Shown here in pieces: positions 2-14,469 of a stretch of DNA of 20,000 bases. Every line of letters begins with the position of its first letter. Within the stretch, counting starts at the first letter, position 1. This DNA comes from an uncultured virus (IMG/VR IMGVR_UViG_3300017963_000243) (lineage: Duplodnaviria > Heunggongvirae > Uroviricota > Caudoviricetes), in the IMG/VR virus record IMGVR_UViG_3300017963_000243, positions 58,571-78,570 of that record, one strand, 5' to 3'. The notes beneath the pieces were generated by a model, which had not been told where the DNA came from, ran no database searches, and worked only from the letters and a program-made list of their open reading frames with translations. The position numbers and the translations under genes were made by a program.

Positions 2-223
2 AAAACCGTAGAGGCTCAGCAAATAGCCGCACTGAAGTCGAAGCAAGATATCTCTTCTTCTCTTACGAAACACATCAACTGTATGGTGTGCGCGCAGTAC
101 CCCACCTGTGCCAAGGACAAAGTAGATCCGTGGACGGACGGCTGCATCTTAGGGCGCGAGGTTAAAAAGAAGATCACCCGGGTAGGTGTAATCCACCTAG
201 GAGAGGACACGGAGGAAGCGTAA
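2..223 (+). CDS. 3' end of an upstream gene, probably a SNF2/SF2-family helicase with a Cys-rich tail (partial)
   Basis: Frame open from the window start, read manually: KTVEAQQIAALKSKQDISSSLTKHINCMVCAQYPTC...GC...EEA*. The TVE..I.AL..K..I pattern resembles the helix after SNF2 motif VI. TAA 221-223 overlaps the next ATG (TAATG). Absent from the ORF track. Confidence 0.55.
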   Translation, partial: KTVEAQQIAALKSKQDISSSLTKHINCMVCAQYPTCAKDKVDPWTDGCILGREVKKKITRVGVIHLGEDTEEA

Positions 224-615
224 TGGACATCGTACTACGAGAACACGACGTTAAAAGAATGATAGGAGAAGCCCTGGGAGTAAAGATCCCTCCTGACGAT
301 TTGATGGTCGAGCAGGACCCCCTGAGTGTGACTATCGTAAATGCGGAAAAATACCTCTACAAAAAGAAACCAGTTTTACGAGGTAAACCTGACGAAGCAC
401 CGTCGCAACCTCCAGATGCCTCTGAAGACTCCGAGCCCCCGCCAAGCGCGGACGCCTCACCCCTCATGTCCATGGACGACTTGAAACGGGAGAGCGCGGG
501 CCTGGCAGCGGCTCCTCCACAAACGGGGAATTCTGAAAACTCTCCCCGAGCGCTGGGAGCCAACGAACGCACTGAAGTGCCGCCCCCAACCGAACACGGC
601 AAGGAGAAATTGTAA
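223..615 (+). CDS. Hypothetical protein, 130 aa, Pro/Ser/acidic low-complexity C-terminal half
   Basis: GGAGG SD at 211-215; start overlaps the upstream stop; abuts the downstream ATG at 616. Confidence 0.75.
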   Translation: MDIVLREHDVKRMIGEALGVKIPPDDLMVEQDPLSVTIVNAEKYLYKKKPVLRGKPDEAPSQPPDASEDSEPPPSADASPLMSMDDLKRESAGLAAAPPQTGNSENSPRALGANERTEVPPPTEHGKEKL

Positions 616-1473
616 ATGCCCGAACTCAATATACATGGAAAGATCGTGGAGGTTCCCGCGGGATTCGGAGATTCCGGACTCCCTAATAAGGAATACTTCT
701 CACACTCCCAGTTCTCAATGTATCGGAGGTGCCCCCGGCAGTTCGAATACCGCTACGTACTCGGTATGCGCCAACCGCCGGGTATCGCCATGACACAGGG
801 GACGGTCATCCATGCCGGAGCAGAGGCCACACACCGCGCCACTATCGAAAACGGTAGGCCCCTATCACTAGAGCACGCAGAGGCTATAGTGTCGGACAAG
901 TTCGATTCTGTGAAGGAGTACATCGAAGACTGGGGAGACGCGAAGCCAGGAAAGGTCAAAGAACTGACGCTTCACCACTTCCGAGTCTACCATAAACAGT
1001 CGATACCCCTGGTACGCCCCAAAGCGGTGGAGGAGCCGTTTGCGGTTAAAGTCGGGACAGTACCCATCGTCGGCTTTATCGACCTCATTGACGAGGTGAT
1101 GTTGGATCGCGAAAATGATACCCTGGCCAAAGGGGAAGGTCCGCTAGTCACGGAAGTCGTCACGGACTTGAAGTTCACGGGTCGTAAATGGCAGGCGGCT
1201 AAGTTGAGACATGACACCCAGCTGACTCTTTATGCGCACGTTAAGGGGATTCCACGTGTTCGCATCGACTTTCTGCTTGACCAGAAGAGCGGCACTCGTT
1301 ACGTTCAGGAAAGATCGTTAAGGACACCGCGGGATGCTAAGAACTTCGAAGAAGACCTGGAAGAATGTGTGGACCTCATCAAGAAAGGCATCTTCCCGCG
1401 TTGTGACCCGACGACCTGGGCCTGTACTCCGCGCTTCTGCGGCTACTACGAAAGATGTCGAGGACCCCAATGA
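616..1473 (+). CDS. PD-(D/E)XK nuclease superfamily protein (RecB/AddB/Cas4-like, PDDEXK_1)
   Basis: FSHSQFSMYRRCPRQF N-terminal motif, GTVIH, GFIDLID, TDLKF, QLTLY, and C-terminal Cys cluster C..WAC..FC..YERC (probable Fe-S clamp). SD AAGGAG at 601-606. Confidence 0.88.
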   Translation: MPELNIHGKIVEVPAGFGDSGLPNKEYFSHSQFSMYRRCPRQFEYRYVLGMRQPPGIAMTQGTVIHAGAEATHRATIENGRPLSLEHAEAIVSDKFDSVKEYIEDWGDAKPGKVKELTLHHFRVYHKQSIPLVRPKAVEEPFAVKVGTVPIVGFIDLIDEVMLDRENDTLAKGEGPLVTEVVTDLKFTGRKWQAAKLRHDTQLTLYAHVKGIPRVRIDFLLDQKSGTRYVQERSLRTPRDAKNFEEDLEECVDLIKKGIFPRCDPTTWACTPRFCGYYERCRGPQ

Positions 1474-2660
1474 CTGAGGAACTGAAACTCCGCGACTTCA
1501 CCGAACTGTCTCCCAAAGAGTTTTGGAAACTCGTTGATGCCGAAGCAGGAGCTGCGCAGACAAAAGTACAGGAGATCTTTGAGAAGGCTAACCGCCAAGT
1601 ACTCAACCAGAAAGAAGCGATTGAGGGGTTGGATGCGCTTTTCATTGATTCGCACCGGCGAATCAAGGAGCACAGCTCTGCGCTCGCTAAACACTACCCT
1701 ACCAAACAGCTGACCAAAAATAAGCTAGAGGACTTGGAGCATATGTGGTGGGTCGACCACTACACCTCGGGGGTCTCTCGGTGGTCGACTCTCAGCTGGT
1801 TCAGCTCCAAGAAGAATGCGAATAAGAAAGGGAAGATGCGGTATAACGGAGCTTCGACGCATTTTGTCCTCGGCTACGAGGGCTACCCTTTCTATATTAT
1901 CCCGCTCATGCACGGAGCGTGGCATGAACCGAAGCGTAACAGAGACTCCATCAGCATCGAGATGGTAAACTGCGGCGCTATCAAGGAACATAAGGGTAAG
2001 TACTGCTACTGGCCCAAGGGATACACGCAAGAAATCCCGGCACAACTCGTAGCCGAACTTCCTCCGACGAGGCTCCCTTTCAATTTCCGAGGAGCTAAGA
2101 TCCTCCAGCCGTTTACGGCGTCCCAGATAAAGTACAATGTTCTCCTCAAGCGCATTATCCTCGCAGCTTTACCCGGTAAATTGGACCGTTCACGCTTCAG
2201 TCAGCACCAGGAATGGCGCAGTACCAAGCTGGACATGGGACCTCTGTGGCCTTTCAAGGACGTCAACGATGCTGCGCATGATGCATTCCCGATCTCGCAG
2301 TACTCCTTCCTCTCCAAATTTGAATTAGCAGTCAAAGACGGCACGATCACCGAAGCTGAAGCTGCCGAACTGGAGATGGAAGGACACAGCCCTGAGTATG
2401 GAGACGAGACTCCTACTCACGATGATGACCTGGACGACGACAACGAAAGCGTAATGTCGATCTCTGAGGTCCAAGAATATCTTAACCTTTACGGATTCCG
2501 TGTGGAAGTCGATGGTAAGTTCGGTCCCCAGACCAAGAAAGCTGTCGGCAAATTCCAGACCGTCTATAACATGAAGTATCCGAGTACGGACGCCCTGGCT
2601 GTCGACGGCATACCAGGCCCCCGTACGTGTGCAGCTCTCAAACGGTATGAGAAGGAGTGA
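1470..2660 (+). CDS. N-acetylmuramoyl-L-alanine amidase (Amidase_2) with C-terminal PG_binding_1 domain; endolysin-like
   Basis: VDHYT, ASTHFV, AWH...N..SISIEMVN, FTASQ and QH...KLDMGP motifs; C-terminal VQEYL...VDGKFGPQTKKAV..FQ...LAVDGIPGPRT. Start set to ATG 1470 (ATGA overlap with the upstream stop) rather than 1455. Confidence 0.85.
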   Translation: MTEELKLRDFTELSPKEFWKLVDAEAGAAQTKVQEIFEKANRQVLNQKEAIEGLDALFIDSHRRIKEHSSALAKHYPTKQLTKNKLEDLEHMWWVDHYTSGVSRWSTLSWFSSKKNANKKGKMRYNGASTHFVLGYEGYPFYIIPLMHGAWHEPKRNRDSISIEMVNCGAIKEHKGKYCYWPKGYTQEIPAQLVAELPPTRLPFNFRGAKILQPFTASQIKYNVLLKRIILAALPGKLDRSRFSQHQEWRSTKLDMGPLWPFKDVNDAAHDAFPISQYSFLSKFELAVKDGTITEAEAAELEMEGHSPEYGDETPTHDDDLDDDNESVMSISEVQEYLNLYGFRVEVDGKFGPQTKKAVGKFQTVYNMKYPSTDALAVDGIPGPRTCAALKRYEKE

Positions 2661-2665
2661 CCGCC

Positions 2666-3010
2666 ATGGAACTGAACGAAGTCTGCAGCAGGTGTGGGAA
2701 GTCCGTTAAGGTTCCCGCTGACCCCGAGTTGATGAAACTCAAGATCGAGGAGGAAGCCTCTGTCAATGAGATCATCGAGAAGTTTCGGCAATTCGCCGAT
2801 AACCTCGAGGACCCTCTCCCCGAAATCATCACGCTCGTCCGTGTGCAAGACGACAACGGAGAGTACCGCTTCGATGTCAAGGCGCTCACCAAGCTGTGCG
2901 GCCCTGATGAGACCAAGAAGCGGAACAAGAGCGGCTGCTTGAAGCGCGTCCAGGCTCTGGTAGATGACATCTACCGACAGGCTAAGGGCCCTTCTAAGAG
3001 TAAGGAATGA
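2666..3010 (+). CDS. Hypothetical protein with CxxC...C...C (possible Zn binding)
   Basis: AAGGAG SD at 2652-2657, 8 nt before ATG 2666; CSRC near the N-terminus plus two later Cys. Confidence 0.7.
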   Translation: MELNEVCSRCGKSVKVPADPELMKLKIEEEASVNEIIEKFRQFADNLEDPLPEIITLVRVQDDNGEYRFDVKALTKLCGPDETKKRNKSGCLKRVQALVDDIYRQAKGPSKSKE

Positions 3011-3186
3011 TGGAGAAATACGGAGTAGACCAGGAGCCCGAGCAAAAAACCGCTAACGAAATCGAGTCCAAATGCCCTCAGTGCGGAAAACGACTTCGAG
3101 ACAGAAGCGAAACCGGCGTGCTGGTCTGTCCGCAGTGCGGAAGTCGACCCTTCGAGTCGACCGAACCTCCGTCGCCCAAAAGCTGA
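3007..3186 (+). CDS. Small zinc-ribbon protein, 59 aa (MMEKYGVDQ...CPQCG...CPQCGSRPFE...)
   Basis: Translated manually; below the 60-aa track cut-off. Two CPQCG knuckles; ATGA overlap with the upstream stop; alternative start at ATG 3010. Confidence 0.8.
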   Translation: MMEKYGVDQEPEQKTANEIESKCPQCGKRLRDRSETGVLVCPQCGSRPFESTEPPSPKS

Positions 3187-3359
3187 GGATCATTCGGGCC
3201 CTTTACTTCGTCGCGTACAACAGTGACGAGAGCCTCTTTCCACAATCAGTAGAGCTCTTCCACACCCTTGGTGAGGTGCTGGAGGGCGTACCCCCCGACG
3301 AACTGAGCCTGCGTAACATCAGCAAGCAGGCCCTTCTCGAGGAGCTAGCGTTCGATTAG
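3072..3359 (+). CDS. Hypothetical protein, up to 95 aa, overlapping the zinc-ribbon gene; start uncertain
   Basis: The C-terminal ~58 aa (LRIIRALYFVAY...EELAFD) look like an amphipathic globular domain and fill the otherwise empty 3187-3359. The ATG/GTG starts that would include this domain (3072, 3081, 3135) lie inside the previous gene. Confidence 0.5.
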   Translation: MPSVRKTTSRQKRNRRAGLSAVRKSTLRVDRTSVAQKLRIIRALYFVAYNSDESLFPQSVELFHTLGEVLEGVPPDELSLRNISKQALLEELAFD

Positions 3360-3385
3360 TCTCTAGCTCCACGGAGTGACCGCCA

Positions 3386-4462
3386 ATGACCGAAAAACAA
3401 GAGAACAAAGACACCCCGGTGTCTGCCGACACCCAAGAGTCAAAAAACCAGAAGGAGAAAAACGTGACTGACGCCAAGGCACCAGAGAAGACTGAGCGTA
3501 AAGCTCCGAAGAAGAAAGCCCCTGTCAAGAAGGAAGAGCCGGTAGCGGAGAACAACTTCGTTGTGAAGCTCACTGACATCGAGCTCCCGGACAAGTGGAA
3601 CCGGGACAAGCCCGGTAACCTCGGGTCATTGACCACGTCGCTCAAGACCATCGGGCAAATCGTCGCCATGGTCGTGCAGCCTCACCCCACCAAGAAGGGG
3701 AAATATGTCCTCGTGGATGGGCGGCGGCGTTACATGGCGCTCCAAGACGCGAAAATCAAAAATGCGTTCGTTACGTTCACCGCGGGCGATGAGACCGAAG
3801 CCTACACCAAGTCCCTGGTGGCAAACATCAACCGGGAAGGTCACAACCCTATGGAGATCGCCAACGCGTTCTCTGAGTTGATCGAAGGAGGTATGAATAA
3901 CCGCAAGATCGCCCGGGCAGGTGGCGTCTCCGAGGGGTTCGTTTCGCAACACTTGTCGCTCCTCGACCTCGACAGTGCGGTACAGAAAGCTATCGCGAAG
4001 GACGTCATCTCGATGTCCCAGGCGCGCATCCTCTGCCGCGTCAATGTGGAAGAACATTCCACTTTCTTCTTCCGCCTGTTCGAACAGATGGTAACCAAGG
4101 GTCTCAGCGCCCCCGAAGCGGACGAGAAGACGAAAGCGTATCTCGACCGTTACAAGCAGCGCCAAAAGGAGAAGGAAGAGGCGCAGAAGGCCAAGGACAA
4201 AGCCGCTGGGAAGGACACTTCCAGCAAGAAGGGCGCAGGGAAGAAGCCGGAAGAGCCCAAGAAGGGCCCCGGACGTCCAGAAGCCGAGGTTCCGACCTAT
4301 GATGACCGTAAGGCTGACATCCGCCCCTCGAACAAGACGGAGCTCCTTGCCTACCTCAACGGTCACTCCGAGCGCATGGCGCGCGCCACGTCAGAGAAGA
4401 CCAAGCAGTTCTTGAAGGGTGTGCTCCACGGTCTGGAGCTGGCTTCCGGTCTGAAGGAATAG
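3386..4462 (+). CDS. parB: ParB/Spo0J-family protein (ParB N-terminal CTPase-like domain plus HTH)
   Basis: YVLVDGRRRYMAL (GxRR arginine patch), ANINREGHNPMEIA, HTH NRKIARAGGVSEGFVSQHLSLL; Lys-rich low-complexity N-terminal and late segments; SD GGAG at 3373-3376. Confidence 0.88.
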   Translation: MTEKQENKDTPVSADTQESKNQKEKNVTDAKAPEKTERKAPKKKAPVKKEEPVAENNFVVKLTDIELPDKWNRDKPGNLGSLTTSLKTIGQIVAMVVQPHPTKKGKYVLVDGRRRYMALQDAKIKNAFVTFTAGDETEAYTKSLVANINREGHNPMEIANAFSELIEGGMNNRKIARAGGVSEGFVSQHLSLLDLDSAVQKAIAKDVISMSQARILCRVNVEEHSTFFFRLFEQMVTKGLSAPEADEKTKAYLDRYKQRQKEKEEAQKAKDKAAGKDTSSKKGAGKKPEEPKKGPGRPEAEVPTYDDRKADIRPSNKTELLAYLNGHSERMARATSEKTKQFLKGVLHGLELASGLKE

Positions 4463-4464
4463 CG

Positions 4465-5517
4465 TTATTCCGCGCAGAGATCGCTCAAATCATTCACTGA
4501 CAATCTTCGGAACTCTAACTTCACCTCTTGCAGTAGTCGCTGCTTGATCTGCCGGACACGTTCCGGAGTCAGGTCGGCGAGTACTGCAAGTTGGTGAAGA
4601 CTCTTCGAAGAAGTTCGGCGCGTTTTTTCAGGGATGTTGTAGTACTGGAGTAAGATAAACTTGTCACGCGCACGCATTGGGATCTTGGAAAGCACGTCGC
4701 GAATCATCTTTGCGACAGTAGCGTCAATGACTTCTTCCTCCATATCGGAGTCACTCGTAAGAGGTATCGGACGACCCTGGGCGTTCTCGAGAGGGACCAT
4801 GATGTTGAGAGCTTCCTGGTCAACCACTGGCAGGAAGTCGTGAGCCTCACCTGAAGGGCATGGCGGTAGGCTTCTAGGGGTAATATCGCCATCTACTCGA
4901 TAGTCGCAATGGCGGCACATAAACGACGTGGTACGTTGCGCTCTGCGGTGCGACTTATGTTTGTGGGAGGGGACGTGCACAATACTGCTACTTTGGATCT
5001 CATCAAACATCTCTTTTCGGATCCAATGTGCAGCGTAGGTCAAGAAGCGCGTCCCCTGAGTGATATCGAACTTGTCGATTGCAATGAGCAGCCCGACGTT
5101 TCCCGCTGACGTGAGTTGTTGTATTCGGTACGGGTCTTTAGTAATGGACTTCGCCATGCGTACAACGAATCGCAAATTACCGTTTACAATACGTTCACGA
5201 GCATCGAGATCTCGCCCTCTACCGCACCTCAAGCAATAAGGTGGAGCATAGTAAGTTTCAAATTTGTCCCCGCACGCGGTACAAAGAGTTAAGTAGTATT
5301 CCGTGGCGTTTTCGTCACCCTCTACGGGAGCGTTGGCGCCACACTCAGTGCAGTAAGGTCTGCGAACTTTGTGAGGGATTAGCTCGTCGCAATGAGGGCA
5401 CGTGTTGTAACGCTTAAGAAGCGCGCGCTCTTCTTTGGGACGCAATAACGGGTGCTTTCCCAAGTCTTCATAGTACGCTTTAAATGTCCTATCGTTAAAC
5501 GCGCTTGCCGATTCCAT
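4465..5517 (-). CDS. Sigma-70 family RNA polymerase sigma factor with Cys-rich zinc-ribbon insertions
   Basis: Region 1.2 YYEDLGKHPLL..EE; region 2 ARERIVNGNLRFVV..AK and GNVGLLIAIDKFD...GTRFLTYAAHWIR; region 4 SLHQLA...LTPERVRQI. Confidence 0.9.
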   Translation of the reverse strand: MESASAFNDRTFKAYYEDLGKHPLLRPKEERALLKRYNTCPHCDELIPHKVRRPYCTECGANAPVEGDENATEYYLTLCTACGDKFETYYAPPYCLRCGRGRDLDARERIVNGNLRFVVRMAKSITKDPYRIQQLTSAGNVGLLIAIDKFDITQGTRFLTYAAHWIRKEMFDEIQSSSIVHVPSHKHKSHRRAQRTTSFMCRHCDYRVDGDITPRSLPPCPSGEAHDFLPVVDQEALNIMVPLENAQGRPIPLTSDSDMEEEVIDATVAKMIRDVLSKIPMRARDKFILLQYYNIPEKTRRTSSKSLHQLAVLADLTPERVRQIKQRLLQEVKLEFRRLSVNDLSDLCAE

Positions 5518-5567
5518 CCTTAACTCCCCGTGCTTAAATACCTATATCAGATACTGCCAAATAGAAG

Positions 5568-5596
5568 TTGACTTGTCCATACTGATCCAATAACGT
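5568..5596 (+). promoter_or_regulatory. Putative sigma70-type promoter for the SSB/replication operon
   Basis: TTGACT (5568-5573), 17 nt spacer, TAACGT (5591-5596) in the AT-richer divergent intergenic region; AAGGAGG SD at 5609-5615 downstream. Confidence 0.55.
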
Positions 5597-5622
5597 GGAT
5601 AGACCGCCAAGGAGGACCTCTC

Positions 5623-6645
5623 ATGAGTAAAGCCAAGAAAAAAGAAGAACCCAAACAGGAGAAAGAAGAGATGAGCGACAAGCAAGAGCCGACTGACATC
5701 GTCAAAGCAGACAGCGCAGAGCTGGAGAAGACGATCCAATCCCCCGTCCTTTTGGATCTCGTACAGCAAGTCAAGAACCCGAGGTTCTATGACAAGTTCC
5801 GTACTCAGCTCGAACGCGTTCGCCGCCCCACTCTCAACGAGTTGGTGAGCATAATCAACACGATTCCCGAAGAGTATCAGGACGCTATCACCACCTTGAT
5901 GAAGAAGATGGATCCGAACCGTCCCGGACTTTACCTCGCGGATTCGCGACCCCAACTCACAGAGCTCCGGCTCTACCAAGGGTCCGGTAACGACCCTAAC
6001 CGTCCCGACAATTGCCGCGTAGGGCACTTCTACTTGACCACCAAACAGAATGTCGGAGCGAAATTCGAGGGTGCAGTTCTCGCACTGTGGCAGGGACGCA
6101 CCATGTGGGCAGGTCCCGAAGATCCTCGCAGCGGTCCCGTCTGTACGTCGATGGACCGGGAAGTGGGTTCCAAGTACGGAACTTGCGAAACCTGTCCTGA
6201 GCGCCCATGGCGTGATGGTGAGAAGACAAACTGTAACGACGACGTTGTCGCGTTCATGCTGCCTAAGGCTATGGACGATATCATCATCGTCCGGTTTTCG
6301 CGTACGTCGGAGGCTTCCGGACGGCAACTCTCTAAGTTCGCCGCTAAGAACCTCGTGCCGTGGCAGCGCTTCTACGAGATCACCGCGAGTGAGCGGCAGG
6401 GCAAGGGCGGCGCTTCGATCAAGTGGCACGTCATGAAAGTAGAGCCTTCCGAGGATTCGATGCCTACCGAGTTGATGGAGTTCTGTGCTGCGCTGTGTGC
6501 AATGGCGGAACACGACTTTATCCTCCCGGGTCTGGGACGCATCTATAACGACGCCGCGGCCCTCAGCGGAGACGCCGCAACTTCGCAGAGTGGCGATGCC
6601 GTCAAGGATGCTAGCGAATACGACGACTTCGAAGACAACGTCTAA
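5623..6645 (+). CDS. Putative single-stranded DNA-binding/annealing protein with a Zn-binding insertion
   Basis: Strong SD; first gene of the replication operon; C-x-S-x-D...CETC...W...C motif; acidic tail EYDDFEDNV typical of phage SSBs; followed by a terminator, consistent with high expression. Function is inferred. Confidence 0.55.
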   Translation: MSKAKKKEEPKQEKEEMSDKQEPTDIVKADSAELEKTIQSPVLLDLVQQVKNPRFYDKFRTQLERVRRPTLNELVSIINTIPEEYQDAITTLMKKMDPNRPGLYLADSRPQLTELRLYQGSGNDPNRPDNCRVGHFYLTTKQNVGAKFEGAVLALWQGRTMWAGPEDPRSGPVCTSMDREVGSKYGTCETCPERPWRDGEKTNCNDDVVAFMLPKAMDDIIIVRFSRTSEASGRQLSKFAAKNLVPWQRFYEITASERQGKGGASIKWHVMKVEPSEDSMPTELMEFCAALCAMAEHDFILPGLGRIYNDAAALSGDAATSQSGDAVKDASEYDDFEDNV

Positions 6646-6657
6646 CCTAGGGGGAGG

Positions 6658-6690
6658 AGTGAGGGGGTGCAACGCCCCCTCACTTTTTTT
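6658..6690 (+). terminator. Rho-independent terminator
   Basis: AGTGAGGGGG / CCCCCTCACT 10-bp stem followed by a T-run (6684-6690), 12 nt after the SSB-like stop. Confidence 0.8.
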
Positions 6691-6694
6691 AGTC

Positions 6695-7516
6695 ATGACA
6701 ATCGAGCCGTCGCAATTTGTATTGGATCACGGTCCCTGGTCATACTCCAAAGCGGAGTCAGCGTCGCAATGTCCGCTACGTTTCTACTACACCTATATAG
6801 AAAAGCGTGCGAAGGGGCGTCCGAACGCCGACGCATTGGTCGGACAAGCGGTACATAAAATTCTGGAGTTCATGATCAGCGGTAGGGAGTGGAACCTGGC
6901 TAGGGATGCTGCGTTAGAGTCCTACGACCTAACGACCAACGAGCTCGACCGCGTTGCAGACATGCGATTCTCCGCTGAGAATTTCATCCAGAAACTGACC
7001 CGGTACCAAGAACGCCACAACATCCAAGACACTTGGATTGAGCGGAAGATGGGCATCACCTTGGAAGGTAAGCCTACCAAGTTCTTCGCCTCAGACGTCT
7101 TCTTCCGAGGAGTTGTGGACTTGGCACTTTTCCCCAAAGATAAAGGACACGTAATCGTCCTCGATCACAAAACGGGGAAACGGCGGAATCTGAAGTACTA
7201 CGAGCGACAGTTCGATTGTTACCTCTTACTCGTGAAGGCTACCCTGGGACGCATCAACCAAGGACGCGTCGGAATCCATTGGGCGAAGGAAGACCTGATC
7301 GAGCTTTCGAAGCAACCCAGAAACCTGACGGAGATTCAGCCATATCAGGAGCAACTGATTGAGTGGTTGAACGCTTCCGTACAGGCCGCATCCGAAAACC
7401 TCGAAACTGCCAAACCAGGACCCCTGTGCCCGTGGTGTGAGCACCAGTCCACATGTCCTGAGTTCGGCCAAGGGAGCGACGCCGACAATGCCTGCGGAAA
7501 GGAAAGCGAAGGGTAA
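6695..7516 (+). CDS. Second PD-(D/E)XK nuclease (Cas4/RecB-like exonuclease), 273 aa
   Basis: WSYSK...QCPLRF, GQAVHKILE, RGVVDL, VLDHKTG, QFDCY, CPWCEHQSTC (1+3 Cys Fe-S clamp). Start moved to ATG 6695; the track's 6485 start runs through the previous gene and the terminator. Confidence 0.88.
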   Translation: MTIEPSQFVLDHGPWSYSKAESASQCPLRFYYTYIEKRAKGRPNADALVGQAVHKILEFMISGREWNLARDAALESYDLTTNELDRVADMRFSAENFIQKLTRYQERHNIQDTWIERKMGITLEGKPTKFFASDVFFRGVVDLALFPKDKGHVIVLDHKTGKRRNLKYYERQFDCYLLLVKATLGRINQGRVGIHWAKEDLIELSKQPRNLTEIQPYQEQLIEWLNASVQAASENLETAKPGPLCPWCEHQSTCPEFGQGSDADNACGKESEG

Positions 7517-10500
7517 GAAACGGGGCATTACCCGCAAACAGATCTGGAAGATCTGGGAAACGGTGTCGCCTCGGGACTGGTACGAGTTCTTTAACCACTT
7601 CAAGCGCGGGTCCAACGTAGAGTTTGCGGGGGACACGACGCTGAAGGCCCTGTGCCCCCACCCTAAGCATCCGGACACTTCGCCGTCGTTCTTCGTCTTC
7701 ACGGCCAAGGGCTACGCTAAGTGTTTTGGTTGCGACTTCTACACCTCCAACCCGATAGAGCTCATCGCGATGTTGATGGGCGGCACAGATGCCGACGCCG
7801 TCCAGTTCTTGAATGAGCGCTTCAACCTGAACTTTTTACCTCGTAAAGCCATTGAAGAGCTGCGAGCACAAAAGACCAACCAGAACACCAAGCAAGCGAT
7901 CATGCACGTATGTAATCAAGTGCTGATTGACGCGCTAGCTGACACCTCTGGAAAAACGCACAAGTTCGCACAACCGGCTCTCGACTGGCTCATCAACACT
8001 AGAAAAGTTCCTGCGGATATGCTGCATGCTCTTCCAGTGGGGATCATGCCACCCTTGATAGAGCTCGGTAATTTGGTGGAGGACTACTGCAAGAAACTCA
8101 AAACCGCGTGGGACAACGATCCTAAGAGGGGACCTACGCCTCCTGAAGATGTCACTGACAACTCCATCAATTACATGTCCGAATCCTTCAGCGTTCCTTT
8201 TACCGTAGGCGGGGTCGTGTGGCCCCTCCACGCAACCCCTACGGAAATTGCACGCCTCAAGATACGCGGACCAAACAACAACACTCCTAAAGACATCACG
8301 ATGCCGATGGATGAGTACGAAGATCTCCTCGGCATGTTCGGACTTGGGTGGGGGCCTTACCAGGCACTCCTTGACCCCAAGACGATGAGTGACTGGGCGT
8401 ATCTCACAGAAGGTGAGATGGACGTCATGTCGTACATGGCCCAAGCTTTGAAGACCGGAAACATCAACTTTCCGCTCTTCTCGATTGGCGGGAAGGGCGG
8501 GTCCGCTCACATCGAACCCATCTTCAAAGCAGCGGGATTCTCCGGCGCTTACATGATCGGAGACTCGCCGAACAAAGGTTCGTCGGGGGGTGATGTCGTT
8601 GTCTACCACTGGATGTCCCACATCAGGGATACACGTGTCAAAGTCTTCACCGGTTGGGACGAACTCATTCCCTGTGGGGACCTCGACGAAGCTGTACTGA
8701 CGCATGGCCTCAAGAAAGTTGAGGACACGCTTTGGAAAGACCCGAGCAAATTCTTTGTTCCTGCGTGGCAATGGTGCGCAGAGAGCGCTATGAGCGCCAT
8801 CGACAACTTGAGCGATAAAGACTACCGCGTGATGGTGGAAATTGCTTCCCAGATTGGGAGCTGTCTTCGAAACCGTCACGACATTGAGCAGTACGCTAAC
8901 GAGATCTCTTCCGCGTATGACGAGATCACGGTTCCCATCCTGAAACGTGAAATAGCCTCCAGCGAGGACACAGAAACGGGGTTCATCCTACGGTGCACTG
9001 ACGCTTTGAAAGACCACTTCGCCACCCTCGCCACCAAGTTGGAGAGCGGTAATCGGTGGTTGTTACTCTACGCTAAACGAGCACGTGAATACCGAAAAAT
9101 CAAACTGGACAGTGAACAGTCTATCGCTCAGGAACTCGCACCGACAACGGGTAATCTCCTCCAGTTTATACGCAACGAAGTAGGCTTTCCGGCTTTCATG
9201 GACGACCCCGAAGAGCTTGACGGTCAAGGACGTAAACGAGCTGATCAGAATGTCCGCTACTACCTGAAAGAAGCGTGTTTGGACATGGCACAAGGCGTAC
9301 CCGATCTCACCGCGACGAAAACATTGCGTCAAGGATACCACACTGTCAAGGGCTCCGACGGTACGCGTGAGTTCATTGTCTGCGGCAAAGACGTTCTACA
9401 TATCGAGAGATCCTCCAACGGAGCACCTATCTACAAGCATCTCGACGGACCAGCACACGAGGGTATCCTATTCGACCTGGGCCTCATCAACCCTCAAGAG
9501 GACACGGAACCCTGGTACCCCGGAGGGCTTACTACAAAGGTCCTCGAGGATGCCCAGAACATCAACGTAGATGCCCTATTCAAGGAGCTACAACACTTCT
9601 TCGATATCGGATTCCAGTTCGCAACTCACGACATCATGAAAACACTCTTGGCAGCGCAGACACTGATCTTCCCTGTCATGAACGCTTTCGACCGCCAGAT
9701 GCTCATGTTCATCACTGGGGAGACGCACTCCGGTAAGTCTACACTCCTCTCAACCTTCGGGGGACCTTTCGTACCCAACTTGAAGCTCGTGCTGTGCTCT
9801 CAAGGCATGGACAACTATACTGCCGCAGGCGTCATGGCAGCCACCAACTGCGACTCCCGGCTCATGTGTCTCGACGAGTTCGAGTTCGAAGGTGCAAAGG
9901 CAGAAGCGTCCCGGGTTATCATGGAAATGCTCCGCGGTCTGGTAACTGACCAAGCCAAACGCGTCACCGGCGTAAAAGACGGAAAGGGTTACAAGGTTAC
10001 GTATCACCGTCTGCCAATGATCTTGAGCGGCATTACTGGCGCTGAACTGCCCCAGGACCTGAACCGCCTTCTGATCGTTGAAATGAAGAAGATTCGTTCT
10101 CGCAACAGTCCAGAAAATATCCTCCTTAAAGAATTCGGACAGGAACGGATCCACGAGATGGCTCGCCAAATTGCTGTAGCGCTCTACCCGCGCGTTCCTG
10201 AAATCCTGACACACTACCAGGAAATCAAGTCCCAGTTTGTTGAGCTCAACGCCCTGCTTCCTTTCCCTGTAGAGTGGCGTTACGCGTCCGCGCTCTTCGG
10301 AACGCTGTCTCTTTTGAAATACTTGGGGCACGACTGGCAGTCGTTCTTTCGTGAGTTCGTCTCTCAGAATGCTACTACGATTCAGCGTGCGTCAACCATC
10401 AACGAGTCTACCAACCTCCTTAACACCATGTTTCGCTATGGTGCGCTTTACAACTACGAGACGAAGCGCAACACTTCCGTCAATACACTTTTGGGGCAGA

Positions 10501-10889
10501 GCATTACACGTAACGAGATCAACTCTTACGCCTGTGGCGTTTACTACGACGAAGCCACTAAGAACATCATGCTCCTCCTCAGCCAAGCGATGCCTGTTCT
10601 CATCCCTCCACAGAATCCCATGCGAAACGCTAGCGAAGTTCGAATTCGAGACACTCTCGAACGTCATCCGCTGGCCCTCTCACCTGCAGAGATAAAGAAA
10701 TCAGGCATGATCCAACGTTCCGCCCCCTTCTTGGGTGTCAATATCGCAGTGGAAGACGTCGTCGCCTTCCGCGCACAACCCTGGTTGAACGAGCCCGGTA
10801 TAGCGGACGATTCAGCACCGAAACCACCGAAGAAAGACGACGATACGCTAGAAAATCCGCAACTGGAAGAGTATGACGACTGGGGGTAA
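7488..10889 (+). CDS. DNA primase-helicase fusion: CHC2 zinc finger, TOPRIM, C-terminal P-loop (SF3/AAA+-like) NTPase
   Basis: CPHPKHPDTSPSF...CFGC (CHC2); YLTEGEMD (TOPRIM); GDLDE; Walker A GETHSGKST; Walker B LMCLDEFE; DLNR arginine-finger-like; acidic tail EEYDDWG. Start ATG 7488 follows AGGGAG 7471-7476. Confidence 0.85.
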   Translation: MPAERKAKGKKRGITRKQIWKIWETVSPRDWYEFFNHFKRGSNVEFAGDTTLKALCPHPKHPDTSPSFFVFTAKGYAKCFGCDFYTSNPIELIAMLMGGTDADAVQFLNERFNLNFLPRKAIEELRAQKTNQNTKQAIMHVCNQVLIDALADTSGKTHKFAQPALDWLINTRKVPADMLHALPVGIMPPLIELGNLVEDYCKKLKTAWDNDPKRGPTPPEDVTDNSINYMSESFSVPFTVGGVVWPLHATPTEIARLKIRGPNNNTPKDITMPMDEYEDLLGMFGLGWGPYQALLDPKTMSDWAYLTEGEMDVMSYMAQALKTGNINFPLFSIGGKGGSAHIEPIFKAAGFSGAYMIGDSPNKGSSGGDVVVYHWMSHIRDTRVKVFTGWDELIPCGDLDEAVLTHGLKKVEDTLWKDPSKFFVPAWQWCAESAMSAIDNLSDKDYRVMVEIASQIGSCLRNRHDIEQYANEISSAYDEITVPILKREIASSEDTETGFILRCTDALKDHFATLATKLESGNRWLLLYAKRAREYRKIKLDSEQSIAQELAPTTGNLLQFIRNEVGFPAFMDDPEELDGQGRKRADQNVRYYLKEACLDMAQGVPDLTATKTLRQGYHTVKGSDGTREFIVCGKDVLHIERSSNGAPIYKHLDGPAHEGILFDLGLINPQEDTEPWYPGGLTTKVLEDAQNINVDALFKELQHFFDIGFQFATHDIMKTLLAAQTLIFPVMNAFDRQMLMFITGETHSGKSTLLSTFGGPFVPNLKLVLCSQGMDNYTAAGVMAATNCDSRLMCLDEFEFEGAKAEASRVIMEMLRGLVTDQAKRVTGVKDGKGYKVTYHRLPMILSGITGAELPQDLNRLLIVEMKKIRSRNSPENILLKEFGQERIHEMARQIAVALYPRVPEILTHYQEIKSQFVELNALLPFPVEWRYASALFGTLSLLKYLGHDWQSFFREFVSQNATTIQRASTINESTNLLNTMFRYGALYNYETKRNTSVNTLLGQSITRNEINSYACGVYYDEATKNIMLLLSQAMPVLIPPQNPMRNASEVRIRDTLERHPLALSPAEIKKSGMIQRSAPFLGVNIAVEDVVAFRAQPWLNEPGIADDSAPKPPKKDDDTLENPQLEEYDDWG

Positions 10890-10892
10890 CCC

Positions 10893-13859
10893 ATGCTCGA
10901 TTGTAATCTCTGCGGACAGACCGCTTGGAAAGGCGAATCCTGTCCCGACTGTCCGATTTACCAACAAGAACACTACATGGAAGGAGTCGGCACACAACAA
11001 AATGTCGACTTCTTCTGTGTAGCCGAGTCTCCTCACGTACCCGGCGTATCGAGTTCCCTCACAAAACACACTCCTTGGGGATTCGACGTAGAAGCTATCG
11101 TGAAACGGTCTGTTACAGACACGGTAGCCACTAAGAATCGTTACCGGCAATTGCGAGGACGCTTTTCGTACGCTGTCCGCTGCGCTGTCGACAAGCCTAA
11201 CAAGAAGATACGAGAAGCCTGCTCGAAACTTTTCAAACCTGAGTTGTTAAAAGCTGCGAATCCTAAACGCCCCATCATGATCTTTGCGCTAGGACCCGCG
11301 GTCCTCCAGTCCCTAGGGATTAAGGTCTCGGGGTACAAAAAACTCCAGGGCAGGCTCGTCGAAGCGACGCTCAGTGGACGCCGTGTCATCATCATGCCGT
11401 CATTATCTAAGCGACAACTTGCGGCAAATCCGGAGCACCACGAAATCCTGATGCGCCAACTGTACCAGTTCTTGGATGCAGTACTGGAAGTACGCGCGGG
11501 AAGATCCGTACAGATCATCACCCCTACGGACATGCTCATCCAAGACTACCGCTTCCCCAAATCCGTTCGTGCGGTCCAGAAACTCGTCGAAGAAGTAGTC
11601 GCCTACGCTCCTGAGGGGAGAAACCCCGATACGCACGTCATCTCAGTAGACACAGAAACTAACACCCTGTTTCCGCACCGCGAAAAGCTCAAGATTCTAA
11701 CCTTCGTGTTCTCTTGGGGCCCTGGCTTAGCCGCTTCAATCCCTATCGAACACGACGAGAGTCCTCTGACATTGGCGGAAGTGGCCCCATATATCCAGCA
11801 GCTTCTCACGTGCCCTAAGCCTAAAGTTTTTCACAACGCCAAGTTCGACCTCAAAGTTTTACGACGTAAAGGGTGGGACGTAGAGAAGCTGGCTTGGGAC
11901 ACAATGCTAGCAGAACACCTTCTTGCTGAGGCCAAAAAGGGGTACTACGACCTGAAGTCCTTGACGCAGAGCTTCCTCCCTAAATACGGCGGATACGAAG
12001 ACGAGATGCAAGCAGTTTACCGGAAGAGAGTCCTCGAGTACAAAGCGTCACTCGAACGAGACCCTAACGCCCCAAAATTGAAGGGTGCTGCTAAGAAGCT
12101 CGATGAAGACTACGGGTACGCCTTCGTCCCTCTTAAGAAGTTGAGCGTGTACGGGGCGATTGACGCTGACGTTACTCGGCAACTTGCTCTCGTCCAGCGT
12201 AAGAGGATGCTCGCTGAACAGAAAGACCTGAACGCGCGTCGTCGAAAAATCAGTACGAACACGTACTTTGCAGCGCTAGCAGCTCCTGGCACGCCGGAGA
12301 AAGAGCCTCTCAAAGCGCTCATGTTTCAGCAACTCATCCCTGTCACGCGTACGTTAGCTCGGATGGAAGAGGTCGGGATGCGTGTCGACCGCCCATACGT
12401 CCTGGACCTCGACGAGAAGATGCGTAGGTCGGCACGTAACCTCTACGCAGAGTTGAAACTCATGCTCCCTAACGGAGTAGTCAACGAAGACTTCAACCCT
12501 AAAAGCGTGGCACAGTTACGACGGATCCTCTTCACAGCGGGTTACCTACACCCCAAAACAGGGCGGATGGTATGTCATACCGGAGAAATCCCTGATGAAG
12601 ATATCCCGCGTACAGGCACGGGATTAATCTCTACGAACGCCAAGTTCTTGCGCGTGCTCAAAAACCAGTATGACTGTCAGTTCTCAGACACCCTCTTGAA
12701 GTACCGCGCGATCACCAAAGCCCGAGACACTTTCGTACGTAACATCCTCGTACTGAGTGAAGAAGACGGGAGGATGCACACCACCTTTAACATCCACGGA
12801 ACAGCTACCGGAAGGCTAAGTTCCGTGGATGAGAACATGCAAAACATCCCCAAGAAGATCGGGGACCACAACCTCAAACAGTCGTTCATTCCAACTGACC
12901 CGGATACGCAAGTCATGATGAACGCTGATGCCAAGGCCGCAGAGGTGCGCCTCTACGCCGCATATAGTCGAGATGAAAACCTGATTAGCGCTCTCAACGA
13001 AGGTCTGGACCCTCACAGCTTCTTCTCCTCTAGAGTCCTCAACCCCGCTACGATCCTGGAAGGTGTTCGGGCTTCCGAGAAATCTTCGGTCTTGGCGCTA
13101 GTCGGGATCGACGACGTACACGACTGGAGCTACGAAGATTTCCAAAAGCGTGGATACTATACGGGGACTGAGGAGGACCCAGGCCCTGACGTCGCTTACG
13201 GTCAACAGCTCGGTAAACTCCGGGGAAACATCAAACGGGTGGTCTTCGGCATCCTCTACGGAGCCGCACCTAAAAAGATCGCCAGTATTGTAGGGATCCC
13301 AGAAGCTCAAGCTGCTGCCATCATCGAATCCTTGTTCCGAATGTTCCCTACTATTCCAGAGTACATCTCGAAGACTAAAGAGAAGATCCAGTACCTCGGG
13401 TGCGTAGAGACCTTCTTTGGAAGACGGCGCCGTTTCAACCTGCGCGGTATGACCTTCAAAATGCGCAACAAGGCTGAGCGGCAGGCTGTTAACATGCTGA
13501 TCCAGAGTACGAGCTCAGAGATCATCATGAGGGTAATCACCGCGGTTGACGAACCCATACGTCACGACTTCGGAGGCAACTTGCTCATCACAGTTCACGA
13601 CTCTCTTGTTGCGGAGATTCCCAAAAAGTACGTCCCTCAAATGAAAGACTTCATCACCGAATACGGAGTCAAGCGCGTCCGAGAGCTCTATCCGTGGCTG
13701 CCTGTCCCTTTCCTATGGGACGTGGAAGTAGGTCCCTCTTACGGACAACTTACTGACATAGATAAGTACCTGAAAGGGAACGTCCTCCCTGCTGACATTA
13801 GTGGCGACGATTACCTCGACCACGAAATCAAAAGCGACTTCGAAAACCTCGACTCCTAG
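10893..13859 (+). CDS. polA: Family A DNA polymerase with 3'-5' exonuclease and N-terminal degenerate uracil-DNA-glycosylase-like (family 4) domain
   Basis: Exo I VDTET, Exo II FHNAKFD, Exo III YGAIDAD; TGRLSS/NMQNIP; motif A NADAKAAEVR; motif B RGNIKRVVFGILYG; motif C VHDS; N-terminal CPDC..AESP..YAVRC..EAC..IFALG resembling UDG-4. Confidence 0.93.
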   Translation: MLDCNLCGQTAWKGESCPDCPIYQQEHYMEGVGTQQNVDFFCVAESPHVPGVSSSLTKHTPWGFDVEAIVKRSVTDTVATKNRYRQLRGRFSYAVRCAVDKPNKKIREACSKLFKPELLKAANPKRPIMIFALGPAVLQSLGIKVSGYKKLQGRLVEATLSGRRVIIMPSLSKRQLAANPEHHEILMRQLYQFLDAVLEVRAGRSVQIITPTDMLIQDYRFPKSVRAVQKLVEEVVAYAPEGRNPDTHVISVDTETNTLFPHREKLKILTFVFSWGPGLAASIPIEHDESPLTLAEVAPYIQQLLTCPKPKVFHNAKFDLKVLRRKGWDVEKLAWDTMLAEHLLAEAKKGYYDLKSLTQSFLPKYGGYEDEMQAVYRKRVLEYKASLERDPNAPKLKGAAKKLDEDYGYAFVPLKKLSVYGAIDADVTRQLALVQRKRMLAEQKDLNARRRKISTNTYFAALAAPGTPEKEPLKALMFQQLIPVTRTLARMEEVGMRVDRPYVLDLDEKMRRSARNLYAELKLMLPNGVVNEDFNPKSVAQLRRILFTAGYLHPKTGRMVCHTGEIPDEDIPRTGTGLISTNAKFLRVLKNQYDCQFSDTLLKYRAITKARDTFVRNILVLSEEDGRMHTTFNIHGTATGRLSSVDENMQNIPKKIGDHNLKQSFIPTDPDTQVMMNADAKAAEVRLYAAYSRDENLISALNEGLDPHSFFSSRVLNPATILEGVRASEKSSVLALVGIDDVHDWSYEDFQKRGYYTGTEEDPGPDVAYGQQLGKLRGNIKRVVFGILYGAAPKKIASIVGIPEAQAAAIIESLFRMFPTIPEYISKTKEKIQYLGCVETFFGRRRRFNLRGMTFKMRNKAERQAVNMLIQSTSSEIIMRVITAVDEPIRHDFGGNLLITVHDSLVAEIPKKYVPQMKDFITEYGVKRVRELYPWLPVPFLWDVEVGPSYGQLTDIDKYLKGNVLPADISGDDYLDHEIKSDFENLDS

Positions 13860-13939: not shown

Positions 13940-14469
13940 GCGGTACGACCAGGGGTGTCACCGCCACAGCCCGAGCCGACCCACTGTGTGACCTGCGATC
14001 ACACACGTGGCTCAAGCCGGGCTACGACGTGACTCCCACCTGACAGCAGTACCCCACGTTCGAGTGTCAGATGCCGCGCCAAGATTTCGGGACCGACTGG
14101 ACGAACGACGAAATCTTAGCTGCCCATCTGACACTTTTCTCACTAGGAGGAAAGCAGTACCCCCTGTGAGTTCTTCGGAGATCCGAGGCCCTCTCCGCGG
14201 GAGATCTACGCGATGATCGGACGCTGCGTAGTCTCACCTCTGCGAGGGCCCGGATCTCCGATGAACATCCTAGCAGTACCTGTGTACCTGAGTTGGCCTC
14301 CTCATCCCGCTATCCGCTAAGATGAGGACCCCAACTCAAAGCCTAGCAGTACCATTTTTAGTGCCGGAAAACCGGGTATACCCCAGCCGGTGAGCTACAC
14401 GCCGGACGCCTTCGTGTGTGGAACTGAGTGCTCTCGGTTCTGAGCAAGAACGACAGCATAGCGGCACTA
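13940..14469 (-). ncRNA. Candidate structured ncRNA: five long hairpins separated by a conserved 9-nt linker
   Basis: No credible ORF. Inverted repeats 13957-13973/14018-14033, 14063-14073/14125-14135, 14175-14185/14251-14261, 14289-14296/14331-14338 and 14359-14366/14462-14469. Several plus-strand C.A mismatches become G.U pairs on the minus strand. Strand is tentative. Confidence 0.5.
14045..14353 (+). repeat. Four exact direct repeats AGCAGTACC
   Basis: Copies at 14045-14053, 14153-14161, 14272-14280 and 14345-14353. Degenerate GCGGTACG at 13940-13947; inverted partial copy GGTACTG at 13874-13880. Confidence 0.9.

Follow-up and report, generated by a model that had tools for sequence, protein, structure and literature searches.

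Does a phage sigma factor that appears to carry zinc modules of its own serve the RNA polymerase of its host or one encoded by the phage, and what would such modules contribute? The question is raised by a minus-strand gene of the uncultured Caudoviricetes virus IMGVR_UViG_3300017963_000243 (IMG/VR), from which we analyzed a 20,000-nucleotide stretch (hereafter, the window) corresponding to bases 58571-78570 of the 78,570-base virus record G000, rated 44% complete. An earlier reading of the letters alone (the original prediction) had described the gene product as a phage sigma-70 factor with an eight-Cys insertion between regions 1.2 and 2 and a further Cys/His cluster at region 3, together forming three putative zinc modules, and had proposed a nested double zinc ribbon that might contact DNA or a co-activator or might sense redox state. 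We find that this architecture is conserved and found no prior description of it, and that the sigma gene co-occurs with genes for a bacterial-type RNA polymerase throughout the related phages in which we looked for one.

Its sequence makes the protein almost certainly a sigma-70-family factor, as originally predicted. The gene is preceded by GGAG 8 nt 5' of the ATG, and the product matched Pfam Sigma70_r2 (PF04542) at residues 111-176 (47.8 bits against a cut-off of 24, E = 1.2e-12), the NCBIfam superfamily model TIGR02937 at residues 105-333 (67.9 bits against 42.9) and phrog_351, "RNA polymerase sigma factor," at 1.8e-24. A profile of the family matched the solved RpoD, RpoS, and SigA chains at ~1e-30 (query 96-326), and profile alignments reached region 4.2 of these chains (query to 325-334), including the region 4 helix-turn-helix; the Pfam model for region 4 (PF04545) was sub-threshold in the window protein (12.9 bits against 24.1) and is precomputed on many homologues. 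The top Foldseek matches of the predicted structure were sigma-S and SigA. No named type of sigma was recovered, as the equivalog and subfamily models (25 listed of 43 NCBIfam families matched) all scored far under their cut-offs; among those listed, the best equivalog was rpoS_proteo with 87.5 against 378.7 bits, and RpoD_Cterm reached 73 against 354. Region 1.2 was recognized weakly by PF00140 (residues 13-33, E = 0.083, 13.3 bits against 22), and an alignment to TIGR02997 begins at residue 13. Sigma70_r3 (PF04539) gave no match at E ≤ 1 in the window protein, and a complete region 3 was thus not recovered. PF04542 matched once per genome in G000 and its near-complete relatives G001-G003, and the sigma gene is the sole Sigma70_r2-bearing gene of G000. 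We consider an HNH endonuclease identity improbable: there was a weak phrog_1271 match (E = 2.2e-4, residues 35-210, across the Cys-rich stretch) and no Pfam HNH match.

The protein shares regions 2.1-2.4 and 4.2 with group 2/3 sigmas (RpoS, SigB, and the C-terminal part of RpoD/SigA), as well as the helix of region 3.0, an acidic linker, and a putative region 1.2, and differs from them by an eight-Cys module of 59 residues and by a C2CH knuckle in place of region 3.1 (Table 1). Residues 7-38 align with region 1.2 of the solved cyanobacterial SigA1 and of a cultured phage sigma, Arash gp196, and the eight-Cys module follows at the junction where primary sigmas have their non-conserved region. 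Counted on the translation, the Cys residues fall at 40/43, 56/59, 79/82, 95/98, 201/204, 220, and 348, with a His at 226; the four CxxC pairs thus lie between regions 1.2 and 2.1 and the C201/C204/C220/H226 set lies after the region 3.0 helix, where region 3 is expected, both as first reported. Cys makes up 12 of the 350 residues (3.4%), against 1.1% in a rough ORF (open reading frame) set of the record. C348 (4474-4476), 2-3 residues short of the C-terminus, recurs in most family members (26 of 39 aligned sequences, by eye).

A model predicted from a 39-sequence alignment (A1) had a mean predicted local distance difference test score (pLDDT) of 79.8 and a predicted template modeling score (pTM) of 0.50. 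Local pLDDT was 89-96 at residues 21-60, 79-81 at 61-80, 90-95 at 81-170, 76-86 in the third module, and 45-53 at 231-260. The eight-Cys module scored 79-96 within the full model and 80.8 when folded alone, and each CxxC was placed between two short strands in a zinc-knuckle-like manner. Three short strands were predicted in the third module (198-201, 207-209, and 228-230) and a helix at 186-195 in the region 3.0-like segment, which has a mean net charge of +4 in the family. The linker that follows the third module is acidic (family mean -5.4, window protein -7), matching expectation for an equivalent of region 3.2.

Conservation of the ligands was assessed with a word-indexed homologue search, which returned 140 proteins at E ≤ 1e-3 (best 120 of 140 listed). 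The family proper comprised P0001-P0094, of which 89 are full length (308-364 aa, 34-99% identity) and five of 227-230 aa were excluded; P0073 and other entries of 201-242 aa start at an internal Met, lack region 2.1, and are probably truncated gene calls. After realignment, all eight N-terminal Cys were kept in 86/89 full-length metagenomic homologues, and the other three (P0089, P0093, and P0094) have four N-terminal Cys left in a CxC...CxxC form through deletion of the inner knuckles. C201, C204, C220, and H226 were all kept in 83 of the 89, with C220 substituted in three (P0040, P0042, and P0045) and the third module gone in another three (P0075, P0078, and P0080). In the 39-sequence alignment, which reaches down to 37% identity, C40, C59, C95, and C98 were invariant and the remaining ligands at least 90% conserved, and in 26 module sequences all eight Cys were invariant, preserving the four CxxC knuckles. 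When 1.84 billion representatives were searched with a profile built on residues 7-126, 10 clusters having the full N-terminal architecture were found at E ≤ 1e-30, and 14 clusters at E ≤ 1e-10. The concern that accompanied the original prediction, that the Cys might not be conserved in homologues, is therefore put to rest. Among 50,697 phage records, none covered at least 80% of the sigma and 65 matched, all starting near residue 70-110; with the zinc module alone, tblastn gave no match to named phages at E ≤ 1. Matches to Bacillus phages that start in the ribbon (query 77-183) were set aside as a spurious extension because the sigma of vB_BtM_BMBsp2 has no Cys in that stretch.

Taken with the predicted fold, this sequence conservation makes it very probable that the Cys/His sets are zinc modules. 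It is barely credible that they are chance or non-metal-binding Cys, or that the ORF is mis-called. All Pfam zinc-ribbon models did fall under their cut-offs (DZR PF12773 with 18.3 against 27.3 at residues 40-99 and DZR_2 PF18912 with 22.7 against 27), but the retention of eight Cys in nearly all homologues, the GGAG before the ATG, and a conserved synteny all speak for a genuine gene and feature: in viral loci with full-length homologues, the 340-aa gene lies upstream on the opposite strand in 36/36, and the ParB-like gene lies downstream on the opposite strand in 34/36, the other two loci stopping at the sigma gene.

The redox motif of zinc-containing anti-sigma (ZAS) type is defined as H-x3-C-x2-C, and no His stands four residues before any CxxC of the translation (by eye). 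This absence, the pairing of CxxC at hairpin turns in the pattern of a structural zinc ribbon, and the lack of an evident partner sensor make it very unlikely that the Cys clusters are a regulatory switch sensing redox state or metal, as in Cys-rich extracytoplasmic function (ECF) sigmas such as CorE2, even though the protein has many surface thiols and Cys-rich extensions regulate ECF238 sigmas (PMC7826278).

How the four knuckles of the eight-Cys module pair is less clear. In DZR/DZR_2 and the DnaJ cysteine-rich domain, two metals are bound by four CxxC knuckles, and the 12/19/12 spacing of the window module resembles that of DnaJ, whose four motifs form two nested zinc centres; no DnaJ chain was found among the zinc-module structure-search matches. 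In structural alignment (VIA), the TAB2 NZF finger (Z 2.1, 26 residues, root mean square deviation 0.8) aligned over model range 9..75 and thus used the first and last knuckles, and the RPA12 N-ribbon (Z 2.1, 40 residues, deviation 2.6) aligned over 24..69, spanning the two middle knuckles. VIA on Foldseek's list gave one match for the zinc module, from which no fold assignment follows. On these weak structural scores for a predicted model, we lean slightly toward a nested topology with knuckles 1 and 4 outer and 2 and 3 inner. Counting against nesting, the twofold repeat TCxxC-x12-CPxCG looks like a tandem duplication, and single-ribbon relatives share its 12-residue spacing; the natural four-Cys variants are compatible with either topology. 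Net charge is variable in the N-terminal module (between -5 and +8, averaging +3.9; window protein -4), which makes one conserved contact with the DNA backbone unlikely.

Comparison with other initiation factors yielded partial likenesses. TFB/TFIIB resembles the window sigma in that it acts in initiation and has a zinc ribbon placed ahead of the DNA-binding domains, and that ribbon contacts the polymerase (PMC6372665, PMC4581349); since all tests identify the window protein as a sigma, the resemblance is functional at most. A sigma-like protein with a Pfam double zinc ribbon, Gp17, has been reported in Bacillus phage vB_BceM-HSE3, but by its description the ribbon replaces sigma-2 and sigma-4 is lacking, whereas the window protein has both intact (PMC7826278). 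No equivalent of the window architecture, whether solved, named, or published, came to light. The claim that group 1-3 sigmas do not normally carry such ribbons stands, in that no description of one was found in the literature searched, in which subscription journals were thinly covered.

The record that holds the sigma gene also encodes a bacterial-type RNA polymerase. Scanning 57 ORFs outside the window, 12 of which were run against Pfam, we located a beta-beta' fusion and a beta' C-part 9-17 kb from the sigma gene and 4-12 kb before the window start (Table 1). Among solved chains, the fusion comes closest to bacterial beta over query 44-981 (2.4e-70) and to beta' over query 1060-1449 (4.5e-48). 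Its Rpb1_1 match is confined to profile positions 164-303, and the 599-aa protein corresponds to the part of beta' that follows about residue 660; these matches indicate a bacterial-type core in which beta is fused to N-terminal beta'. Against Taq beta', the fusion has residues 7-54 and then jumps to 146, with the zinc-binding domain (55-145) replaced by about 20 residues. It keeps the lid, the clamp helices (DTNPLYQDLIYINNQMKEV...LQQAVGAVYG), and the catalytic NADYDGD, and its flap-tip stretch aligns with beta. The fusion is free of Cys in all five genomes compared (the window record and four relatives of 1450-1461 aa), and its junction lacks Cys in 14/14 relatives; the beta' C-part has four Cys (213, 270, 277, and 280), a pattern like that of the second zinc site of bacterial beta'. 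No match to alpha (PF01000) or omega (PF01192) was found in the four records G000-G003, with controls matching in 14/14 genomes.

The polymerase was present in all 15 related-sigma genomes tested, five each with double-ribbon sigmas, with single-ribbon sigmas, and with more distant relatives, and beta and the beta' N-part were separate genes in one genome tested. A 528-aa LigD primase-polymerase/phosphoesterase-like gene (G000:C1 48211-49797, minus strand; Pfam 4.5e-12 and 1.6e-7) abuts both polymerase genes. In several relatives (L198-L202, L205, and L113), the open frames of the fusion are longer (1610-2015 aa) or its matches are split, which suggests inteins or mobile insertions, and Vibrio phages D148 and D181 have an annotated homing endonuclease under the fusion match.

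The fusion also matches four named phages over its full length: Arash (180,819 bp, 36% identity) and the Vibrio phages D69, D148, and D181 (~187 kb, 35%). Salmonella phage Arash (OQ632216.1) shares with the window phage the fusion (gp206), the beta' C-part (gp216), and the sigma (gp196). Like the window sigma, which is lone on its strand, gp196 is the only plus-strand gene among minus-strand neighbours, and it aligns with regions 1.2 and 2 of the window protein (32% identity, E = 2e-15). It differs in that only 13 residues make up its 1.2/2.1 junction, in having neither a ribbon nor a C2CH module, and in that its host is Salmonella; the 258-aa sigma of Vibrio phage D69 likewise has no space for a ribbon. 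Arash encodes a further, 234-aa sigma-like protein, gp10 (Sigma70_r3, 9.1e-9). Mass spectrometry of Arash virions detected gp206 with the most spectra, together with gp216 and gp10 (PMC10585845), and gp196 goes unmentioned in the available text of that paper, beyond which we found no literature description of this phage clade (subscription journals being thinly covered). Homologues of gp10 (L210-L212; 239-255 aa, 39-40% identity) occur in all three near-complete relatives, G001-G003. None was found in the 44% complete fragment that holds the window.

The host core, implied as the partner in the original prediction, is a doubtful choice given that the phage encodes its own bacterial-type polymerase. 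Because these phages do so, the most likely role of the sigma is as specificity subunit of the phage enzyme, and we see an even chance that this enzyme is its main partner. As a whole, the best explanation is that the protein is a non-virion (middle/late) specificity subunit of the phage polymerase with add-on zinc modules, a reading whose prospects we judge to be evenly balanced. Under it, the sigma would act in initiation in an uncultured phage lineage whose genomes measure ~170-180 kb, and regions 2.1-2.4 would bind the beta' clamp helices and would melt and read the -10 element. An eight-Cys double ribbon would have been added at the 1.2/2.1 junction and a C2CH zinc knuckle substituted for region 3.1, the zinc sets presumably folding as small rigid domains. 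The sigma would join the phage core post-infection, and by analogy with Arash the smaller gp10-like protein may serve the packaged enzyme. The zinc modules, probably dispensable for basic sigma function, would adjust clamp or promoter-DNA contacts, adding or modifying contacts at the non-conserved-region junction and beside the region 3.0 helix.

A classical takeover, in which the sigma redirects the host core to phage middle/late promoters and the phage polymerase uses another sigma-like protein or none, is possible, with a distinctly smaller chance. Bacterial sigmas have closely similar regions 2.1-2.4 and a closely similar recognition helix in region 4.2, sigma-70-like promoters (e.g., TTG[GT]AT-N17-TATACT) occur in the record, reviews have phage sigmas acting on the host core (PMC7598289, PMC13282480), and the packaged polymerase of Arash is accompanied by gp10 and not by the homologue gp196 (PMC10585845). 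However, the polymerases of all 15 genomes have clamp helices and a flap tip and would need some specificity factor post-infection, and no anti-sigma or host-takeover gene was recognized among the 57 ORFs outside and 14 inside the window, most of which lack a family match. Specificity subunits of phage multisubunit polymerases have precedents in phiKZ gp68 and AR9 gp226, of which the latter is said to lack sigma sequence similarity and the former is described as a structural homologue only, in polymerases made of 4-5 pieces (PMC13282480, PMC7598289); unlike in phiKZ and AR9, the sigma and polymerase of the window phage are both plainly bacterial-type.

Several points weigh against our preferred assignment of the sigma to the phage polymerase, with its zinc modules and timing. 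The sigma is tied to the phage polymerase, as opposed to the host core, by co-occurrence, which within one viral clade may reflect shared descent only, and region 2.2 is close enough to the bacterial consensus that it may bind the host core. A full-length relative of the sigma was found in none of 185,579 species genomes (one genome each), and the Atlas returned generic sigma clusters only. The non-virion, middle/late timing is drawn by analogy from a relative with 32% sigma identity across 90 residues. Sigma-70-like sites were the only ones recovered, and no phage-specific promoter consensus was found in the 78.6-kb fragment by k-mer counts, a -10-anchored listing, and inspection by eye, with imperfect ORF calls behind the search, in that the shadow ORF 5542-6696 was picked. 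As for the modules, zinc binding is read from sequence and a predicted fold; the module alone had no Foldseek match in the PDB at E ≤ 0.001, and only two of 48,161 chains reached Z ≥ 2 in VIA alignment (the TAB2 and RPA12 chains above).

The sigmas of the clade vary in their ribbons. G000-G005 have two ribbons and the third module, G006-G010 one ribbon (four of five sequences read, the G008 locus giving only a 22-residue frame), G011 a ribbon within region 2, between DRY and TRFLTYA, and G012-G015 none; within the double-ribbon group, a subclade that includes G003 (L026-L032, 315-330 aa) lacks the third module. The single-ribbon sigmas (P0101-P0104 and P0135-P0145; G006-G010) carry CxxC-x12-CxxC at the same junction as the window protein and share its flanks, Y-x-T-C ... 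C-P-x-C-x-x-P-R-D/N-F-x-A-R-D, and their phages have the same polymerase; they differ in having one ribbon and no third module and are 29-31% identical to it. The occurrence of ribbons at three positions in one clade is a notable pattern, and because ribbon number and placement differ among sigmas of the clade, some of which have none, we regard the ribbons as lineage-specific add-ons.

This variation bears on the idea that the zinc modules act in trans, filling the space or taking over the DNA/RNA-exit contacts of the lost beta' zinc-binding domain. The beta' zipper and zinc-binding domain of bacterial holoenzymes are close to the region 3.0 helix, which the third module adjoins; moreover, the domain is absent in 15/15 genomes, and sigma ribbons have been gained at the 1.2/2.1 junction, inside region 2, and in region 3. 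Yet G012-G015, Arash, and Vibrio phage D69 combine a domain-less polymerase with a ribbon-free sigma, so the ribbons are not required to offset the loss. With the domain lost throughout and the ribbons variable, the relation is not one-to-one, which weakens the compensation idea, and we consider it decidedly improbable. A self-contained, pared-down machine, consisting of the fusion, the beta' C-part, and two sigma-like factors and devoid of alpha, omega, and the beta' zinc-binding domain, is likewise unlikely to be one in which ribbons of the post-infection sigma supply the clamp, exit-channel, or spacer-DNA contacts that the stripped core has lost, with the three ribbon positions of sister lineages as repeated solutions to one deficit.

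Table 1. Features of the sigma gene, its surroundings, and the polymerase genes (positions in the window unless prefixed by G000:C1; residue numbers refer to the sigma protein).
Feature	Position	Strand	Basis or remark
beta' C-part, 599 aa	G000:C1 46411-48210	-	Rpb1_5 3.4e-16
beta-beta' fusion, 1452 aa	G000:C1 49797-54155	-	Rpb2_3, Rpb2_6 2.7e-48, Rpb1_1, Rpb1_2 4.9e-22
PD-(D/E)XK nuclease	616-1473	+	
Amidase/PG-binding endolysin	1455-2660	+	
ParB-like protein	3386-4462	+	
Sigma-70-family gene	4465..5517	-	ATG-started ORF, 350 aa; Sigma70_r2, phrog_351, PDB profile matches
Region 4 (residues 263-340), recognition helix TPERVRQIK	4498..4731	-	Aligned by profile with solved sigma chains
Acidic, poorly ordered linker (residues 231-262), region 3.2 position	4732..4827	-	pLDDT 45-53
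Third Cys/His module (residues 198-230), C201-x2-C204-x15-C220-x5-H226	4828..4926	-	In place of region 3.1
Region 3.0-like basic helix (residues 178-197), motif VHVPSHKHK	4927..4986	-	Aligns with RTIRVPVHMIETINK of solved RpoD
Regions 2.1-2.4 (residues 104-176), including NLRFV, SAGNVGLLIAIDKFD, FLTYAAHWIRKEM	4990..5208	-	Sigma70_r2, residue-by-residue RpoD alignment, invariant A1 columns
Eight-Cys module (residues 39-101), two putative zinc ribbons with four CxxC knuckles in all	5215..5403	-	Conservation, model
Putative region 1.2 (residues 7-38), two helices	5404..5499	-	Predicted helices 3-19, 27-38
Divergent intergenic region, sigma to first replication-module gene	5518..5622	.	
Promoter-like TTGACT-TGTCCA-N11-TAACGT	5568-5596	+	
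340-aa protein	5623-6645	+	No Pfam, PHROGs, or NCBIfam match
Second PD-(D/E)XK nuclease	6485-7516	+	
Primase-type protein	7437-10889	+	
Family A DNA polymerase	10893-13859	+	
Large terminase	14467-16065	-	More minus-strand genes beyond

The genomic setting agrees in part with the original prediction, which had the sigma gene alone on the minus strand and divergent from the replication operon. This holds locally, as plus-strand genes flank it at 223-4462 and 5623-13859, but not across the window, where minus-strand genes resume at 14467. The 340-aa gene upstream of the sigma holds a Cys cluster of its own, C-x16-C-x2-C-x13-C (by eye), and is overlapped by the 384-aa minus-strand shadow ORF (5542-6696). 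Related records rated 95-100% complete measure 170-179 kb, and the genomes considered here span 158-198 kb.

The intergenic region between the sigma gene and its neighbour carries the TTGNNNTGTCYA element, which recurs at this place in most related loci (L004-L037) in the form TTGNNN-TGTCYA-N11-TAnnnT. Its orientation is toward the sigma gene in most clades; in that of the window, it faces the neighbour. With a single intergenic place in the 78.6-kb record, it is not a general promoter. Sigma-70-like promoters of the form TTG[GT]AT-N17/18-TATACT lie at G000:C1 6765, 22942, and 45886 (minus strand), and 13 of 16 TATA[AC]T hexamers are on the minus strand, which is the predominant coding strand there. 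An inverted repeat, TTTAC-NNN-GTAAA, occurs at window positions 375, 2168, 7835, and 11858 (four against none expected), is spaced by ~5-8 kb, and is mostly intragenic; there are 14 copies in G000, 21 each in G001 and G007, one in G002, and none in G003, and a reversed control was absent everywhere. A dimeric DNA-binding protein, e.g., the adjoining ParB-like product, could recognize this repeat. tRNA-like sequence with a T-arm-like GGTTCGA was seen by eye in gaps at G000:C1 ~1950-2040, 10360-10500, 10880-11060, and 14540-14610.

The finding gains in interest from its context, a phage clade with a sigma-dependent bacterial-type polymerase of its own. In the available parts of the literature, no sigma factor was found in polymerase-encoding group 1 phages (PMC7824862), jumbo-phage polymerases are described without alpha, sigma, or omega homologues (PMC13282480), and reviews from 2020, 2021, and 2026 (including PMC7824862 and PMC13282480) have jumbo phages encoding a multisubunit polymerase or a sigma, not both. 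Jumbo phages are by definition larger than 200 kb, a size that the genomes here do not reach, and the window lineage and the wider clade carry both. If the sigma served only the host core, the result would be a conserved, apparently undescribed architecture of modest consequence. Arash, as a cultured distant relative, makes the polymerase-sigma question testable, the zinc-ribbon form being known from metagenomes alone. A putative zinc-module sigma beside a stripped core may thus be viewed as a natural experiment on which parts of the holoenzyme are dispensable and on how sigma and core divide their contacts.

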